A stretch of 64,000 nt of DNA, from positions 864,001-928,000 of the forward strand of contig CAVPIW010000006.1 of assembly GCA_963705105.1 (NCBI GenBank), given 5' to 3'. This document shows, piece by piece, positions 30,801 through 60,778 of this stretch (position 1 is the stretch's first letter; each line of letters begins with the position of its first letter). The position numbers and the translations under genes were made by a program. Below the pieces are notes generated by a model. The model saw nothing but the letters and a program-made list of their open reading frames with translations. It made no database searches and was not told the DNA's origin. This DNA comes from an uncultured Nitrospiraceae bacterium. GTDB taxonomy: Bacteria > Nitrospirota > Thermodesulfovibrionia > Thermodesulfovibrionales > Dissulfurispiraceae.

Positions 30801-31006
30801 TTCTTACCTCCTGAGTTCAGTTTAATCAATGAGCAACTTGTTGTTGAACATAAAGACGTCATTCACTGACTCCATACATCAACTCCTCATCCAATGTGAT
30901 CCTTCATGATCCTCCTACTTCATAGGCGCTGCCTCCTTCCCTCCGCATCAACGGTTGGCCGTCGATGAGAAAGGCTGAACATCCCCACATTATAGACAGA
31001 TTTCCT

Positions 31007-31080
31007 TCGGCAGCCCGGCCGTCTCCTGCGAGACCCGTCGCTTTCCGTCCCACCCTTGCGGATGGTTTGGCTTTATCGTG
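31007..31080 (-). promoter_or_regulatory. c-di-GMP-I (GEMM-I) riboswitch
   Basis: CGATAAAGCCAAACCATCC-GCAA-GGGTGGGACGGAAAGCGACGGGTCTC..GAGACGGCCGGGCTGCCG. Confidence 0.92.
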
Positions 31081-53325: not shown

Positions 53326-53797
53326 TGAATCCTCCTGAATTTACAATAACTTTACTATAATAGACCGGCAGAGCTGCGGTCAATAGAGGTGGGTGCAACA
53401 GTGTCAGTATCGGTTCTATCTCCAGCCACTCGTGTCCAAAACAGCTGACATCGAGACCTTGAAAACGAGGATAGGGTTTGTTTTCTGAAGCAAAATTCAC
53501 GGGTAACGTGAACGGTGGCGGGAGTCGAAGGCGCAAGCCGCAGCGGAAGCCGCACAGTGTACCGGAGAAGGCAAAGGTTTTCATACCAAAGGCATACACA
53601 TGAGCATAGGGAGTTTATTTTGCGAAGAAAGCATGCCCTATCCTCGTGTCAGATTATTTTGGACACCGGTGATTTAATAGTTCAAATTAAAGAGTACCTA
53701 TAGACAACCGATAATAATCTAAGCGCCGGGTGTGGGAAGCGGGAGTTTCCTGCTGCCCGCCACATTCTGGATAGCGCACAAAACAGGAGGATCGTAC

Positions 53798-54883
53798 ATG
53801 GAGATTATTGATATCCTGAGTGCCTCCGTCGAGGCGAAGGCATCGGACATTCACATCGTCGTCGGCAAACCGCCGATGGTCCGGGTCTTCGGCCACATCA
53901 GGCCGCTGGCTTCATTTCCCGCAATCGATGCCGAAACGGCGAAAAGTCTCATTTACAGCATGCTCTACCAGGACCAGATCTCCCGTTTTGAGGAGCGCCT
54001 CGAACTCGATTTTTCCTACAACGTGCCCGGTGTAAGCAGGTTCCGCGTCAACGTGCTCTCCCAGATCAACGGTATCGAGGCCGTGATGCGTCTCATTTCG
54101 AGCAAGATCCCGACTCCCAAGGAAGTGCGCATTTCAGACGTCATCATATCCCTTACGAGGCTGGCCCGCGGTCTCATACTCGTGACGGGGCCGACGGGAA
54201 GCGGCAAAACGACCACTCTTGCTTGCCTCATCGATATCATCAACAACGAGCGTCGCGACAACATTATCACCATTGAGGACCCTATCGAATTCGTCTTCGA
54301 AAACAAAAACTGCGTCGTGCGGCAGCGGGAGGTGGGCATGAACACCCATTCCTTCACGGAAGCACTGAAGCACTCCCTCAGGCAGGACCCCGACGTGATC
54401 CTCGTCGGCGAAATGCGGGACCTCGAAACGATCTCCCTGGCCATCACGGCGGCTGAAACGGGCCACCTTGTCTTCGCGACCCTTCATACGCAGGACGCCC
54501 CCCAGACAGTCGACAGGGTGGTCGACGTCTTCCCGCCCCATCAGCAGCAACAGGTGCGGGTGCAGCTCGCCTCGACGCTGAAGGCCGTCGTCTGCCAGCA
54601 GCTCATCCCGCGGGCCGATAAACGGGGCAGGGTTGCGGCCCGTGAGACCATGATCGTCACTCATGCCATTGCGAACCTCATCAGGGAGGGAAAGACCCAC
54701 CAGATTTACAGCGCCATCGAAACGGGGGCGAAACTCGGCATGTGCACTCTCGAGACCTCACTGGCCGAACTCGTCAAGGAGAGGCTGATCTCCATCGAGG
54801 ATGCTTTCAGCAAGGCGAACAACCAGGATACCCTGAGGCTGAAACTATCGGCCCTGGGAGTGAACCTCGGAATAAGGAAATAG
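53798..54883 (+). CDS. pilT: Type IV pilus retraction ATPase PilT
   Basis: ASDIH, GPTGSGKT, LRQDPD..VGEMRD and NLIREGK motifs. Confidence 0.93.
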   Translation: MEIIDILSASVEAKASDIHIVVGKPPMVRVFGHIRPLASFPAIDAETAKSLIYSMLYQDQISRFEERLELDFSYNVPGVSRFRVNVLSQINGIEAVMRLISSKIPTPKEVRISDVIISLTRLARGLILVTGPTGSGKTTTLACLIDIINNERRDNIITIEDPIEFVFENKNCVVRQREVGMNTHSFTEALKHSLRQDPDVILVGEMRDLETISLAITAAETGHLVFATLHTQDAPQTVDRVVDVFPPHQQQQVRVQLASTLKAVVCQQLIPRADKRGRVAARETMIVTHAIANLIREGKTHQIYSAIETGAKLGMCTLETSLAELVKERLISIEDAFSKANNQDTLRLKLSALGVNLGIRK

Positions 54884-54894
54884 GAGTCTAAAGC

Positions 54895-56043
54895 ATGCAG
54901 ACAGTAAATCATTACCTGAAAATGCTCGTCGATCAGGGCGGCTCCGACCTTCACCTCAAAGTCGGCAGGCCGCCGCTCATTCGCATAAAAGGCGATCTCT
55001 TTCCGACAGAACTCCCGCCGATAAAAAGGGACGAGATGGAGCAACTCCTGTCGCCGGTCCTGACCGATGCCAGGAAAAAGAAGCTCCGTGACGACGGTGA
55101 ACTCGACTTTTCCTACCTGATCGAGGGACTTGCCCGTTTCAGGGGAAACATCTTCTACCAGCTCGGCAACATGGGCGCAGTGTTCAGGCTCATCCCGATC
55201 AAAATCGAGACGCTGGACGATCTCGGACTGCCCGATGTGCTGAGGGATATCATCATGAGGGAACAGGGCCTCGTCCTCATTACGGGACCGACGGGAAGCG
55301 GCAAGTCGACAACACTTGCGGCCCTCGTCGACTACATCAATGAGCGGATCCATAAGCATATCATTACCATCGAGGACCCGATCGAGTTCATCCATGCCGA
55401 CAAGAAATGCACGATCAACCAGCGTGAGGTGGGGACCGACACACAGTCCTTCTCGTCCGCCCTCAAGAGGGCGCTGAGGCAGGACCCGGACGTGATCCTC
55501 GTCGGTGAAATGCGCGACCCCGAGACGATCCACATAGCCCTCACCGCATCGGAGACGGGGCATCTCGTCCTCAGCACCCTCCACACGACATACGCGAAGC
55601 AGTCCATCAGCAGGATCGTCGATGCCTTCTCACCGGAGCAGCACCACCACGTCCGCGTCCGCACAGCCGCATCGCTTTACGCCACGATCGCTCAACGGCT
55701 CGTGAAAAAATCTGACGGTTCAGGACGCGTGGCCGTGATGGAGGTCATGATAAACACACCGACGATCCGGAAGCACATCTCAGAGGAGCACCTCGACCAG
55801 ATCGACAAGACCATTGCGGAATCGGCGCAGCTCTATAAAATGCAGACCATGAACCAGCACCTCTTCCAGCTCGCCCAGGACGGCGTGCTGACCAAGGAGG
55901 ACGCCCTCAGCGCGAGTTATAACCCGAACGACCTGAGGATCATGTTCCAGACCCTCGGAGGCAAGGCCCCTGCCGCGGATCCGAAAAAAGTGGCGGCCAT
56001 GCCTCAGAGACCGCCATGGATGAAGGACAAGGAGATCCGCTGA
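54895..56043 (+). CDS. PilT/PilU-family ATPase
   Basis: GSDLHL, GPTGSGKST and LRQDPD motifs; lacks the AIRNLIRE motif. Confidence 0.9.
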   Translation: MQTVNHYLKMLVDQGGSDLHLKVGRPPLIRIKGDLFPTELPPIKRDEMEQLLSPVLTDARKKKLRDDGELDFSYLIEGLARFRGNIFYQLGNMGAVFRLIPIKIETLDDLGLPDVLRDIIMREQGLVLITGPTGSGKSTTLAALVDYINERIHKHIITIEDPIEFIHADKKCTINQREVGTDTQSFSSALKRALRQDPDVILVGEMRDPETIHIALTASETGHLVLSTLHTTYAKQSISRIVDAFSPEQHHHVRVRTAASLYATIAQRLVKKSDGSGRVAVMEVMINTPTIRKHISEEHLDQIDKTIAESAQLYKMQTMNQHLFQLAQDGVLTKEDALSASYNPNDLRIMFQTLGGKAPAADPKKVAAMPQRPPWMKDKEIR

Positions 56044-56070: not shown

Positions 56071-57183
56071 TCAGACTCCGGCCGCATCCATGAGCCTGTC
56101 GAGGCGTTCCGCCCCCTGTCCGCCCGTCGAGTCCTGAGTCATCACCCACTGCTTCAACTTTGCGAGACTGCGGCCCGAGTCGATGGCATCCCTGCTCATC
56201 TCCACACCCGTCCTGATGTCGTCACACCTGCCCGCGACGGTCAGTATGGCCGCGGCATTGAGGCAGGTGAAATCGATGCAGCCGTCGTGACCCCTGCCTC
56301 CGAGCACCTGGAGAAATCGAAGCGCTTCCTGCCGGAGGTCTCCCGTTGGAACGATCTCTTCAGAGCGGCTCCTCCTGAGACCGGCATCTTCCGGTCTCAG
56401 GGTGTATGTGATGCGTTCATCTCCCGAGAAAGTGCATACCATTGACTCACCCGTGACGGACAGCTCATCCATCCCGAGCCCCGACCGGTCATCGCGCCCA
56501 TACACGACCATTCCCCGTTCATATCCGATCATCGTCATGATATCTGCGGCCTTCCCGACGAGCCTCTCAGCATAAACACCCCTGACTCCCTGCGTCGGCT
56601 TGCAGGGGTTTGCAAGGGAGGCGGCGATATTGAGCGTCGAGCCGAACCGTATCTGACTCAGGATCCGCCCGAGCGCCCCCGGGTGCACACGGGGACTCAT
56701 CCCGTTCAGCAGGCCGATCCCGGCCCGCCTGATACTCTCCTCGACGGTACCGATGTCGCATTCGACATCGAGGCCGAGCGATTCCAGGATATCGACGGTC
56801 CCGCAGAATGAGGTGATGGCCCGTGCGCCGTGTCGCGCCATGGTGACGCCGCATGCGGACGCCACAATGGCCGCTGCGCTGCTGACGTTGAACGTCTTGA
56901 GGCCGTCCATGCCCGTGCCGGAATTTTCGAAAAGGGGCCGGGGGAGGTCATCGGAGACCTGCACCGTATCGAATTCCGAGATGGCCCGCCAGGCCCCGGC
57001 GATTTCCTCCGCCGTCTCGCCCTTGGCGACGAGGGCCGCCAGGAAAGCACCCTGCTGGAGATCAGGCTGCTCGTTGAGCAGCACCTCCCTGAACATCCCG
57101 TATGTCTCCTCCCCGGTCAGGTGCTTTCCGTCGATGAGACGCTGTATCTTCTGCCCGAAATCCTTCAGTTTTCGTGTGTCCAT
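56071..57183 (-). CDS. Anthranilate phosphoribosyltransferase-like protein (divergent TrpD)
   Basis: SGTGMDG..TFNVS, RHGAR, GMDE and LNAA motifs. Confidence 0.8.
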   Translation of the reverse strand: MDTRKLKDFGQKIQRLIDGKHLTGEETYGMFREVLLNEQPDLQQGAFLAALVAKGETAEEIAGAWRAISEFDTVQVSDDLPRPLFENSGTGMDGLKTFNVSSAAAIVASACGVTMARHGARAITSFCGTVDILESLGLDVECDIGTVEESIRRAGIGLLNGMSPRVHPGALGRILSQIRFGSTLNIAASLANPCKPTQGVRGVYAERLVGKAADIMTMIGYERGMVVYGRDDRSGLGMDELSVTGESMVCTFSGDERITYTLRPEDAGLRRSRSEEIVPTGDLRQEALRFLQVLGGRGHDGCIDFTCLNAAAILTVAGRCDDIRTGVEMSRDAIDSGRSLAKLKQWVMTQDSTGGQGAERLDRLMDAAGV

Positions 57184-57200
57184 CTGTGCCTCCCTATTAT

Positions 57201-57646
57201 CCTTTCTGTTGCATGAAGAGCCGGGGCGACGCGCTCTGAAACGCAGTGACAGTGCGAGTGTGAGTGTCAGTGAAAGGAATCGTTCTTATATCTACGCTGC
57301 CGTCCTGGTATTCATGACCTTGCTCCCACTGTCGATTGCCGACAATGACTTTAATGACTCAATGACTTAACCTTATCGTTGCAATACACTTCCGGGAAAG
57401 GCGGGGCGTATGCGCCGAAAACCTTGCTGCGGCGACACCATAACTCTCACAGAAGACAACCTTTCAAACCAATGGTCGACCACACAAAGAGTGGAATCCT
57501 GAAAGACAAACCTGACGAGGCTTATCGTCGCCTTCAGCAAGGCTTTGAGGCGCTTCGCCACGCCTTTCTATACAACTACAAGGTTAATGACTCTTACGGT
57601 GGCATCGTCGCTCCGCCTTTCCCGGGAGTGTATTGCAACGATAAGG
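57201..57646 (-). mobile_element. MITE-family copy hosting a nested copy
   Basis: CCTTTCTGTTGCATG...TTGCAACGATAAGG; TTAT on both sides. Confidence 0.9.
57371..57583 (+). mobile_element. Nested MITE-family copy
   Basis: CCTTATCGTTGCA...CAACTACAAGG; TTAA duplicated; the empty site is seen near 39370. Confidence 0.92.
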
Positions 57647-57661
57647 TTATGATCAGCCGGG

Positions 57662-58633
57662 TTAACGATCCGGATAAAGATGGATTTTCATGCATTCCCG
57701 TTGCTCCACGAGGCCGAGTGCTTCGTCGAGGTCCCGGAGGGGAAACCGGTGCGAGATGAGATCGCAAACCTGAACGGCGCCCGATGCGAGGAGCGACAGC
57801 GCGTCCTCACCATGGCGGTAGCTGCAGCCATAGGCGCCGACGACGGTCTGCTCGAAATAGTGCAGCCTGTTGAAGTCAACGGAAACGACTGCCCTGTCGG
57901 GGGAAAGACCCGAGAAGACGACAAGCCTTCCCCGCGGACTCAGACATGCAAGGGCCTCGTTATATGCTTCTGCGGAGCCGACGGCGACGACGGCGACATC
58001 ATAATGACGGCCCGTCGGCCTGGTGTTGCCCCCGATGAGAGCACAGCGGCGCGGGTCCGGGTCGATGACCGTCGGGACGCCCCCCATCGCGATGGCAGCC
58101 CTGTTCAACAACGTACCGGCCGGACCGGCGCCCCAGATGCAGATCGTCTCGCCCTCTTTCAGCCGGCTCAGTTCAAGGGCATTGAGACAGCATGAGAGGG
58201 GCTCGGCGAAGACGGCCTCCTCATCGGTAAGACTTTCCGGAATGGGGATGACGCTCTGTGCCGGTGTGCTGACATATTCGGTGAAGCCGCCGTCGCGGTG
58301 AAATCCCATTACTTGCATCTGCTCACAGAGGTTCCCGGCGCCGGCCCGGCAGGGCCGGCAGGTGCCGCAGGAGATCCCGGGATAAACATAGACGCGCTGA
58401 CCCGTCTGCAGCCCCCCGACTCCCTCACCGGTTTTGCAGACCGTCCCGACAACCTCCTCTCCGGGAATGCGGGGCAAAATGAGATCGCGGTGCCCGACGC
58501 GGATGAGCTTGAGGTCCGTCCGGCAGAGCCCTGTGACGGTCACCCTCAGAAGCGCCTCGCCCGGTCCCGGTTCCGGCACGGACCTGTCCGTGATGACGAA
58601 TGATCCGACCTGCTCGACGACAACTGCCTTCAC
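57662..58633 (-). CDS. Zinc-dependent MDR dehydrogenase with atypical GEE motif
   Basis: GLCRTD, PGEE, CGTCRPC..C and GAGPAG motifs; likely GTG start after GGAGG. Confidence 0.88.
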   Translation of the reverse strand: MKAVVVEQVGSFVITDRSVPEPGPGEALLRVTVTGLCRTDLKLIRVGHRDLILPRIPGEEVVGTVCKTGEGVGGLQTGQRVYVYPGISCGTCRPCRAGAGNLCEQMQVMGFHRDGGFTEYVSTPAQSVIPIPESLTDEEAVFAEPLSCCLNALELSRLKEGETICIWGAGPAGTLLNRAAIAMGGVPTVIDPDPRRCALIGGNTRPTGRHYDVAVVAVGSAEAYNEALACLSPRGRLVVFSGLSPDRAVVSVDFNRLHYFEQTVVGAYGCSYRHGEDALSLLASGAVQVCDLISHRFPLRDLDEALGLVEQRECMKIHLYPDR

Positions 58634-58660
58634 AGATCCCTCCATGGCCGCTGCTGTTAT

Positions 58661-58709
58661 AAAACAAAAAGGGTTCCTGCGGACGAACAGCATCCACAGG
58701 AACCCTTTG
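58661..58709 (-). terminator. Intrinsic terminator (riboswitch expression platform)
   Basis: Minus strand AAAGGGTTCCTGTGGA-loop-TCCGCAGGAACCCTTTTTGTTTT. Confidence 0.8.
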
Positions 58710-58737
58710 CCATCGGATTCCCAAAATCTTCATGTCC

Positions 58738-58890
58738 CAGCAGGTCTTCTGGCTCTCGGATCTACCGGGGGACCCGGCCTTCCCGGTCAGGGTATGCCCT
58801 GACAGTGGCTGTCGTGTCGACGTGAGTCCCCGTCCCCGATCACAGCGGCGGGACCGCCACGGATTTTCACCGTGTTCCGGATTGCTGGAA
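58738..58890 (-). promoter_or_regulatory. Cobalamin riboswitch
   Basis: GGAACACGGTGAAAATCCGTGGCGGTCCCGCCGCTGT...GCCACTG...CGGGAAGG...AGCCAGAAGACCTGC (B12 box); TATAAT at 58898-58903. Confidence 0.92.
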
Positions 58891-59309
58891 CGGCGTTATT
58901 ATACACCGGGAGAGTGCTCCGGTTTCAAGAGGTGCTTCTTATCCTGGCATCACGAAGCCCTCGGAGAAACGGATTTTCATTACCCTGCGATCCTCCCCTC
59001 CAAATCTTTCATATCACCGCCAGACGCGCAGTGGAATTTACACCCGCAAATCTTGTCCGGGGCCATTTCATCAAGAGCGCGGATTTCCGAAGAAGTCCAT
59101 CCTTATCGAAACGATGTCGCAACGAGCCTGTCCTTCCGAAGGTCCGCAGAGAACGCCAGTGCCGATAAAGGCCAGAGAGTCCTCTGAGAAATCAATGTGT
59201 CACCATGGGGTGTTGCAGAGGCTTTCCAGGCATAGGCCGGATAAGCAAAGAAACCCTTGACAGATGGTCTTTTCTCGGATATGATTGACTCAGGAATGAC
59301 GCAGCTTCC

Positions 59310-59406
59310 CGACAAAGCCACACCACCCGAGAGGTTGGGACGGAAAGTAGAGGGTTGTGCATCTGTCCCGTCTCAGGCGGAGGGACAGGAATGGTCGGGC
59401 TGCCGA
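59310..59406 (+). promoter_or_regulatory. c-di-GMP-I (GEMM-I) riboswitch
   Basis: CGACAAAGCCACACCACCC-GAGA-GGTTGGGACGGAAAG...GGTCGGGCTGCCGA. Confidence 0.82.
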
Positions 59407-59434
59407 CGGCAACGTGCCAACAGGGAGGGAAATC

Positions 59435-60778
59435 ATGAAACGAACGATACGTGTCGCCTCAGCATGCTTCGCAGCGATCTGCATTATATCTCTATCAGTA
59501 TGTATCGACTCAGCCCGGGCAGTGAAGTTTCCCATCACCTACGAAGGGACGGTCCAAGTCAAAGCTTCCTTTCCACACGGCAGCTGCCAGGGAGATGCGA
59601 AGATGAAAATCACCCTTTATGCTGACGGGAGATTGCAGGAAACCACCGATGCAATCATCATCGAAAACGCGACAGGCTGCGAGATTGCCTCAATCGACAG
59701 CATGCAGCAACCGTGGAGAGTGCACCAGGGTACACATGACAAAGCCGGCAGTTTCTCGCTCAAAATGGCCTATGTCACCGTCACCGGAACTTTTGGTGAT
59801 CAACAGATCAGCGGTACGGGAACGTTCTCCGACGCCTATATGACCGAGACCTATACCTTTACGCTCTTCGTGCAGGGCAGTGCCCAGAACCGGCAGCCCG
59901 AGATCGCCCTGTCGCCTGCCGACTATCCCTTTTTTCAGTTAAACGTGCTGATGAATAATGGATTCACCATCGCCATCCGCGACGAAGACGGCCTGCAAGA
60001 CAGCACGGGCAACTGGAAGATCGATTGGGGAACCCTTCGGCTGACGATGGACGGCATCGATATCACCGGCCACTTCCTGGACAAGATAACGAAGAATAAC
60101 ATCTTCTCCGTTGAGACGACGAGCAAGGAGCTGCGGCTACACATCACACCCGACCCGGTGAAGTTCATGGTGGAGCACGACGTCTTCTTCATCCTCAAGA
60201 ACGGCACCCACATCATCGAGCTCAGCATCTGCGATACGGGCAAGCTCTGCGGAAGATCGGCATACTCCATCTACTTCGGCCCCTTCATCCTGACAGGGCC
60301 GGTAGATCACCAGAACTGTGACGTGACACTGACGCCGGACCAGCCGTTGAGTTGGGGAAATTACTTCACCCCTGATTTCCTTGTTCTCGGGAACACCGGG
60401 CTCGACTACGGGAAAAACGCTCTATTCTTCGTTTTGATGAACACAGCTCAAGAACTGGAGGCAAGTTTCCAGTTTGACACACGCCGTGTTCCATTTCACG
60501 GCCTCACACCTAACCAGGAGGCCTTGGTGCGTCTGGGATTAAACGGTTGGAGAGATACGATAGTTCCTGTCTTTGACTCACAGAGTATCCCGACTGGTCA
60601 TCTTGAGTACATTCTCAAGACTGATCTTACCCAAGATTCTGCCCTGCGGGCAACGGGCCTTTTCGCCACCAATCCGCGGCTTCATGGACCTCTGAAACTC
60701 TACTCAACGGTCATTGACCAGGAAGACCAGGCGTACCAACTCGGCATCATCGATTTTACATTGTGCCCGGGGAACTAA
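59435..60778 (+). CDS. Secreted hypothetical beta-rich protein
   Basis: Signal peptide MKRTIR...ARA; RBS GGAGG. Confidence 0.75.
   Translation: MKRTIRVASACFAAICIISLSVCIDSARAVKFPITYEGTVQVKASFPHGSCQGDAKMKITLYADGRLQETTDAIIIENATGCEIASIDSMQQPWRVHQGTHDKAGSFSLKMAYVTVTGTFGDQQISGTGTFSDAYMTETYTFTLFVQGSAQNRQPEIALSPADYPFFQLNVLMNNGFTIAIRDEDGLQDSTGNWKIDWGTLRLTMDGIDITGHFLDKITKNNIFSVETTSKELRLHITPDPVKFMVEHDVFFILKNGTHIIELSICDTGKLCGRSAYSIYFGPFILTGPVDHQNCDVTLTPDQPLSWGNYFTPDFLVLGNTGLDYGKNALFFVLMNTAQELEASFQFDTRRVPFHGLTPNQEALVRLGLNGWRDTIVPVFDSQSIPTGHLEYILKTDLTQDSALRATGLFATNPRLHGPLKLYSTVIDQEDQAYQLGIIDFTLCPGN

Follow-up and report, generated by a model that had tools for sequence, protein, structure and literature searches.

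The 64,000-nt stretch of DNA analysed here (the window; NCBI GenBank assembly GCA_963705105.1, contig CAVPIW010000006.1, positions 864,001 to 928,000) comes from an uncultured Nitrospiraceae bacterium and carries on its minus strand, in this order, a cobalamin riboswitch aptamer, a terminator-like hairpin, a gene for a dehydrogenase of the medium-chain dehydrogenase/reductase (MDR) superfamily and, beyond a 478-nt gap filled by nested multi-copy repeats, a gene for a paralogue of anthranilate phosphoribosyltransferase (TrpD), here called TrpD2 (Table 1). A preliminary description of the locus had proposed an undescribed B12-regulated lower-ligand module, a proposal supported by the conservation of the riboswitch, by linkage and fusion to cobT in relatives and by the presence of a canonical trpD elsewhere in the genome. 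The MDR-TrpD2 module is genuine: it is conserved, regulated by B12 and part of the lower-ligand branch, its enzymology is undescribed, and it probably contributes, alongside CobT, to the supply of the nucleotide loop or of the lower ligand.

The aptamer matches the full RF00174 model (positions 1-189) at 78 bits (gathering score, 31.5; E = 1.6e-17), lies upstream of a same-strand gene and extends 35 nt beyond the end coordinate given in the preliminary description. It is the single RF00174 match across the whole 4.2 Mb genome (G000, 99% complete), whose only B12 riboswitch heads exactly the MDR-TrpD2 pair; a scan with the same model found no cobalamin riboswitch at the corrin and nucleotide-loop gene cluster (G000:C5:425500-444000). 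Judged by its sequence, the hairpin is likely the expression platform of the riboswitch. The MDR start is ambiguous (ATG at 58645 or, alternatively, GTG at 58633), a ribosome site (GGGAGG) stands immediately upstream of TrpD2, and 28 nt separate the end of TrpD2 from a pilT-family gene that converges on it. Two RNA runs (share 0.06-0.07, contigs only) gave depth mainly over repeats and hence no evidence on expression.

Table 1. Features of the MDR-TrpD2 locus and of the repeats within it, in window coordinates.
Feature	Position	Strand	Basis
Cobalamin riboswitch aptamer (RF00174)	58722-58925	-	Rfam covariance model
Intrinsic terminator-like hairpin, 18 pairs and T tail	58708-58668	-	hairpin scan; also forms in fold
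MDR dehydrogenase open reading frame (ORF), 327 aa	58645-57662	-	ADH_N and ADH_zinc_N
TrpD paralogue (TrpD2) ORF, 370 aa	57183-56071	-	TIGR01245
Inner repeat element, ~213 nt with 4-nt TTAA duplication	57367-57587	.	genome repeat matches
Outer multi-copy repeat nest, interrupted by inner element	57196-57655	.	genome repeat matches

The dehydrogenase carries the Pfam domains, structural zinc Cys and Rossmann motif of the MDR superfamily, and its model (pLDDT 95.7) matches solved relatives with a TMq of about 0.9. The nearest of these, at ~30% identity, include threonine, ketose, galactitol-1-phosphate, idonate and sorbitol dehydrogenases, and overall its closest relatives are dehydrogenases that are uncharacterised or of the polyol or threonine type; it scores under all NCBIfam cut-offs (TIGR00692, L-threonine 3-dehydrogenase, 141 vs 458 bits). 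As first described, the riboswitch and terminator do precede an MDR of the GEE type, which reads RIPGEEV at the site where MDRs carry GHE; this substitution had been taken as an atypical site, but it is not peculiar to this gene and marks one clade (54-67% identity to protein P0002), whereas orthologues at 29-40% identity retain GHE, as do the MDR-CobT fusions shown below. Among the catalytic zinc ligands, Cys41 and Glu64 are invariant, and the His becomes Glu63 in the GEE clade and is kept in other orthologues. Asp44, Glu148 and the four structural-zinc Cys are also invariant, and further conserved features are Lys46, Arg53, FSGL, HY.E and GAYGC; the position of Lys46 and Arg53 near the catalytic Cys suggests a substrate that is anionic or carries a phosphate.

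TrpD2 scores 244 bits on TIGR01245, over the cut-off of 199, its model (pLDDT 92.6) matches TrpD structures with a TMq of 0.80-0.86, and it is 33% identical to the canonical trpD product of the same genome. The motifs SGTGMD and RHGAR, noted at the outset, are indeed encoded by the 370-aa ORF. An alignment of 239 proteins comprised 73 canonical TrpDs (GTGGD and KHGN), 137 proteins with GTGMD and 29 with neither, which were excluded from the comparison; GTGMD replaces GTGGD in all 137 TrpD2 rows, which were themselves chosen by that motif. Residues for phosphoribosyl pyrophosphate (PRPP) and Mg are retained in TrpD2 (glycine loop, Mg-binding Ser, DE pair and phosphate-binding loop), with GTG.D, Asn99/Ser101, HG.R and Asp239-Glu240 all kept. 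The acceptor site is altered: the anthranilate-site Asn of KHGN, present in 100% of the canonical rows, is Ala (96%) or Ser (4%) in TrpD2, and the helix-8 Arg, likewise at 100% in canonical TrpD, is Leu in 99%, the same register being obtained for both by a profile hidden Markov model alignment to 9UCW. According to passages of PMC9835598 and PMC5537072, the anthranilate carboxylate is held by Asn138 and Arg193 in M. tuberculosis TrpD. Near-invariant residues new in TrpD2 are Trp65, Asn87, Met92, Lys96, Asn160-Gly161, Arg173 and Arg201. A quick tree of 76 rows placed the TrpD2 rows on one branch of 25 (SH-aLRT 99), separate from the TrpD of G000 itself. The ESM Atlas returned generic family names only, a Pfam scan showed the PF02277 domain to be absent from both TrpD2 and MDR of G000, and a complex prediction for the two proteins (score 0.00) gave no evidence either way. 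A sister branch of TrpD paralogues with a GTGAD motif occurs in G630 (L135:6333-7448), together with P0127 and P0131 and followed by a molybdopterin oxidoreductase; it may represent a different module.

Of 8000 candidates scored in a profile search, 2569 clusters reached E 1e-110 or better and were assigned to the TrpD2 family. Their source names include Deltaproteobacteria, Nitrospirota, Chloroflexi, Dehalococcoidia, Kiritimatiellae and archaea, and members are routinely named anthranilate phosphoribosyltransferase. Occurrence is patchy: the family was found in 2 of 301 genomes from the phylum of the window and in 11 of 151 from the class to which G301 belongs; for G302 the counts are 1 of 151 at the class level and 10 of 301 at the phylum level. 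We compared 102 loci, namely the best 80 of 508 confirmed metagenomic loci and 22 genomic ones; several are near-kin, so that locus counts are not independent. MDR lies directly upstream of TrpD2 in 94 of the 102, with a median gap of 39 nt. The eight exceptions comprise four with at most 168 nt of upstream sequence, two with a downstream MDR-CobT fusion, one with such a fusion elsewhere in the genome, and L060, which is unexplained. RNA families were scanned in 52 loci, the metagenomic ones picked for long flanks, and a cobalamin riboswitch stood directly upstream in 38 (2/2, 9/14, 12/17, 5/9 and 10/10 by batch); at L030 it heads a longer gene run, with an NMT1/THI5-type ABC importer between riboswitch and MDR. 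In 8 of the 22 genomes (class of G301, phylum of G302, and G274; for example L111:4738-5121, L131:8128-8400 and L132:9086-9379), TrpD2 is followed by a small gene whose product has a KASV[FY]-like motif and matches no Pfam family; it was not found in G000.

The host encodes both enzymes that the pair might have been thought to replace. A canonical trpD (426 bits on TIGR01245) lies beside trpE on contig C16, so TrpD2 is not the sole TrpD, and a canonical cobT lies on contig C5, clustered with matches to cobU, cobS, cobC, cobQ, cbiB, cobD, cbiA, cbiC, cbiE, cbiL and cbiF, leaving no missing CobT to be replaced. The only ThiC in G000 scores 560 vs 700 bits on TIGR04386, under the BzaB cut-off, and adjoins a thiG-like ORF recognised by eye; BluB had no match over the cut-off in this genome, and CbiZ was not found in it. 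From this gene content, G000 appears to build its cobamide without any known route to benzimidazole.

Linkage to B12 genes, which could have been lacking, is found in relatives. One protein, P0272 (732 aa), is an MDR-TrpD2 fusion, and three genomes encode MDR-CobT fusions (G744, 705 aa; G758, 716 aa; G803, 737 aa) whose CobT domains score over the cut-off of TIGR03160 or of Pfam; the fusion gene of G744 and G758 comes after TrpD2 and a small gene. The gene next after TrpD2 is cobT in L088, G636 and G827, the last (L133, G827:C235) having a riboswitch-MDR-TrpD2-cobT-cobS run just downstream of a full trp operon with its own canonical trpD. Elsewhere the pair lies between cobD and cobQ, with a GHMP (PduX-like) kinase in the same gene run (L035), cobU-cobT lies downstream of it in one lineage, and in another lineage (L054 and five kin loci) TrpD2 is followed by a gene with a CbiZ domain and by a B12 transporter. 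In G758 and G803 there is, in addition, a separate riboswitch-ThiC paralogue-cobT unit, with an added O-methyltransferase in G758; this is the bzaF-cobT layout, as described in part of PMC8123684. Each module in these two genomes thus has its own CobT, as expected if the modules supply different bases. The gene cobT is present in all 23 genomes with a family match, among them G630, which has only 168 nt upstream and may not carry the module, and in 132 of 151 and 217 of 301 genomes of the background. No TrpD2-CobT fusion was found among 8000 long candidates, which is weak evidence, and no base-pocket signature was found in the fused and linked CobTs, which read GVSA[YF]P..VT..MV.N like that of G000. 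CobT domains also occur in long open frames at G876:C144:29656 (980 aa), G699:C12:10986 (613 aa) and G762:C18:6681 (605 aa), which are possible further fusions. P0273, in which TrpD2 is joined to a clostripain domain (clostripain is also a neighbour at L043), was treated as read-through or chance.

CobT requires both a base and a donor, and the pair most likely serves CobT instead of replacing it, because the fusions chain TrpD2 to MDR and MDR to CobT. We infer an order of steps, a substrate and a product as follows. With plentiful B12, the aptamer and terminator would turn the operon off; with scarce B12, TrpD2 and then MDR would act upstream of CobT to supply the lower-ligand base. TrpD2 would use PRPP/Mg to ribosylate an aromatic amine other than anthranilate, MDR would carry out an NAD-linked oxidation of the ribose-derived polyol chain, and CobT would turn the resulting base into the alpha-ribotide. 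This supply of a base by aryl-amine ribosylation and oxidation is the reading that we tentatively favour. Its most specific version, an oxygen-independent third benzimidazole route beside BluB and Bza that starts from an ortho-diamine and PRPP and uses no bza genes, is possible but on the doubtful side. Here an ortho-diamine such as 4,5-dimethyl-1,2-phenylenediamine would react with PRPP to an N-ribosylamine, C1' of the ribose would close the imidazole ring and become C2 of the base, and one two-electron oxidation would free the benzimidazole and erythrose 4-phosphate with no need for oxygen; a fused or adjacent CobT would capture the product, and the small unannotated third protein would assist in some lineages. 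By our arithmetic, the mass balance from diamine and ribose 5-phosphate to benzimidazole and erythrose 4-phosphate needs exactly one two-electron oxidation, which MDR would supply. A non-enzymatic model of the diamine-to-benzimidazole reaction was reportedly described by Maggio-Hall, Begley and colleagues in 2003. Free 5,6-dimethylbenzimidazole (DMB) is a flavin antagonist (PMC10468695, in excerpt), and channelling into CobT would limit it.

Several observations weigh against this reading, its weak points being the source of the amine, the coexistence with bza and Arg173. A source of the diamine was not found in this analysis, and the NMT1/THI5-type importer occurs in one locus only. Matches to cobT, cobS, cobQ, cobD or cbiA lie in just 15 of the 102 loci, several of them kin, and cob genes occur in 13 of the 53 loci of at least 7 kb. 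The enrichment of cobT among carriers is in the right direction and not significant (10/10 vs 207/291, p = 0.07; 11/11 vs 121/140, p = 0.36). Module and bza are not mutually exclusive, a bzaB match over the cut-off being present in 3 of the 11 carriers and in 34 of the 140 genomes that lack the module (p = 0.73). The new invariant Arg173 of TrpD2 stands two residues ahead of the lost Arg, and an anionic acceptor, for example a carboxylic acid, is thereby not excluded. In G000 itself, the 478-nt repeat nest may decouple TrpD2 from the riboswitch. As a separate observation, G403 (L110 / L136) has a riboswitch-bzaA-bzaB unit ~11 kb downstream of its riboswitch-MDR-TrpD2 unit.

Arg173 leaves room for nicotinate and so for supply of the donor, an alternative that we consider unlikely, in which TrpD2 would use PRPP to convert nicotinate, or a different carrier, into a beta ribotide (nicotinate mononucleotide or an analogue) for CobT and would recycle the CobT by-product, while MDR would make or adjust the carrier. 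The stereochemistry agrees, as alpha-PRPP would lead to a beta donor and this to an alpha product, Arg173, Lys96 and Arg201, all new and invariant, could hold a carboxylate, and coexistence with bza is compatible with it; a polyol-type dehydrogenase would have no clear role, and a general donor would need no second CobT such as those of G758 and G803. A search for the nicotinate phosphoribosyltransferase domain PF04095 gave no match in G000 or in 10 of the 14 genomes examined, but the domain is also mostly missing in the background (17 of 151 genomes with a match) and the search was insensitive (G378 matched in one run and was missed in another), so that this gives no signal, and an anti-correlation of pncB with the module was discarded as uninformative. 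Supply of a base is favoured over that of a donor because in two genomes the module has a CobT of its own next to a bzaF-type unit, because bluB/cobT fusions are a precedent, and because TrpD natively ribosylates an aryl amine and its carboxylate site has been remodelled in TrpD2. It is improbable that MDR is instead a dehydrogenase for threonine or aminoacetone that provides the nucleotide loop with (R)-1-amino-2-propanol, TrpD2 being an accessory: threonine 3-dehydrogenases rank high among the relatives of MDR, cobD and cobQ flank the pair in L035, and G000 has CobD but no tblastn match to the GHMP kinase of L035, yet the TIGR00692 score is far under the cut-off, a PduX-like kinase is already present in the L035 gene run, the fusion partner of MDR is CobT and not CobD or CbiB, and the phosphoribosyltransferase would be offered no chemistry.

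The preliminary description had gone further and suggested a PRPP-dependent alternative to CobT, in which TrpD2 would make the activated base directly, perhaps with MDR-assisted inversion of the anomer. The retained PRPP site, the altered acceptor site and the regulation by B12 are in keeping with it, and trapping of an alpha product ahead of ring closure is conceivable, given that aryl-amine ribosides epimerise in solution (PMC9835598, in part). This suggestion is nevertheless unsupported and the least probable of those considered, with cobT kept in every family-match genome and MDR fused in three to CobT domains that score over a family cut-off. Moreover, transfer from alpha-PRPP onto a ring nitrogen, such as that of benzimidazole, yields the beta ribotide, and cobamides need the alpha form. 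The product of CobT is alpha-ribazole phosphate, as stated in passages of PMC8123684. Also highly improbable is a B12-independent bypass of a B12-dependent enzyme or a second anthranilate phosphoribosyltransferase. Such a role would suit the TIGR01245 score and the 87 of 102 loci in which the pair has no cob match nearby, and B12 riboswitches control isozymes too; the pair is, however, fused or adjacent to cobT, cobU, cobD and cbiZ, canonical trpD stands beside trpE in G000 and, in G827, belongs to a full trp run adjoining the module, the anthranilate residues are replaced, and TrpD2 forms its separate branch. There is a small chance that the chemistry lies outside all of these readings.

The gap between the two genes holds two nested families resembling miniature inverted-repeat transposable elements. 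The inner one has 188 near-full-length matches in the genome, its own copy counted, an abundance unusual for 4.2 Mb, and is inserted in a TTAA site of the outer one, of which eight empty junctions without the inner element occur elsewhere in the genome; its 4-nt target duplications, in end-to-end copies, are TTAA (15), TAAA (11) and TTTA (9). A 41-nt inverted repeat pairs 57368-57408 with 57609-57649, and the sole segment of the gap without a repeat match is 57184-57188. The ~30 nt earlier estimated to remain after removal of the nest therefore holds as ~5-30 nt, set by the choice of repeat boundaries. Elsewhere in the window, tandem PilT/PilU-family ATPases (53732-56043, plus strand) converge on TrpD2 and are not related to the module, a near-consensus sigma-70 promoter (59257-59285) precedes a 473-aa ORF (59357-60778, plus strand) with a secreted-looking N terminus and no Pfam or NCBIfam match, and a c-di-GMP-I-GGC riboswitch (71.4 bits) occurs at 31005-31080 on the minus strand, a second being present at L012:6428-6511.

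If true, the diamine route would give anaerobic bacteria and archaea without known base genes a way to make or rescue their lower ligands, and an acceptor found for TrpD2, whichever it is, would add a new specificity to the TrpD fold; with two soluble enzymes, PRPP, NAD+ and amines, the question is directly testable. No published description of the module was found in the literature searched, most subscription papers and bioRxiv supplements lying outside its scope, and supplements on riboswitch regulons may list these genes. The Dehalococcoides genes DET0125-DET0126 are reportedly repressed by B12; a literature search returned no paper on this. Passages of PMC12452182 concern a canonical T-box trpD and not the module.

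Among known systems, TrpD (EC 2.4.2.18; TIGR01245; PF02885 and PF00591; PDB 9UCW, 1ZYK, 5NOF) has its fold in common with TrpD2, which departs from it in GTGMD, in the change of Asn to Ala or Ser, in the change of the helix Arg to Leu with a new Arg, in the Asn160-Gly161 insertion, and in its regulation by B12, its MDR partner and the canonical trpD in the same genome. The MDR polyol/threonine branch (PDB 4EJ6, 4ILK, 2DFV, 1E3J, 4A2C) shares with the module MDR the fold, the structural zinc Cys, the catalytic Cys and Glu and the Rossmann glycine motif, from which the ~30% identity, the Glu in place of the His ligand in the GEE clade and conserved motifs of its own set it apart. The bzaF-cobT and bzaAB-cobT-bzaC operons of anaerobic benzimidazole synthesis (passages of PMC8123684 and PMC6461909) resemble the module in their cobalamin riboswitch, their own cobT and their occurrence in anaerobes; unlike them, the module has no ThiC-like radical SAM enzyme, the enzyme families are unrelated, and some genomes have both. 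BluB, the DMB synthase, is fused to CobT in Actinobacteria (PMC8123684, in part), a precedent for a base-making enzyme joined to CobT, and erythrose 4-phosphate would be a co-product common to it and to the diamine version proposed here, whereas its flavin- and oxygen-dependent nitroreductase fold is unlike the module enzymes. CobT (nicotinate mononucleotide:base phosphoribosyltransferase, TIGR03160), ArsAB and CblT/CblS perform phosphoribosyl chemistry in the lower-ligand branch, as proposed for TrpD2; unlike CobT, TrpD2 lacks PF02277, and CobT itself is encoded either by a gene of its own or in fusion with MDR. By sequence criteria, both proteins of the module belong to known folds and yet fall outside TrpD proper, Tdh, CobT and Bza.

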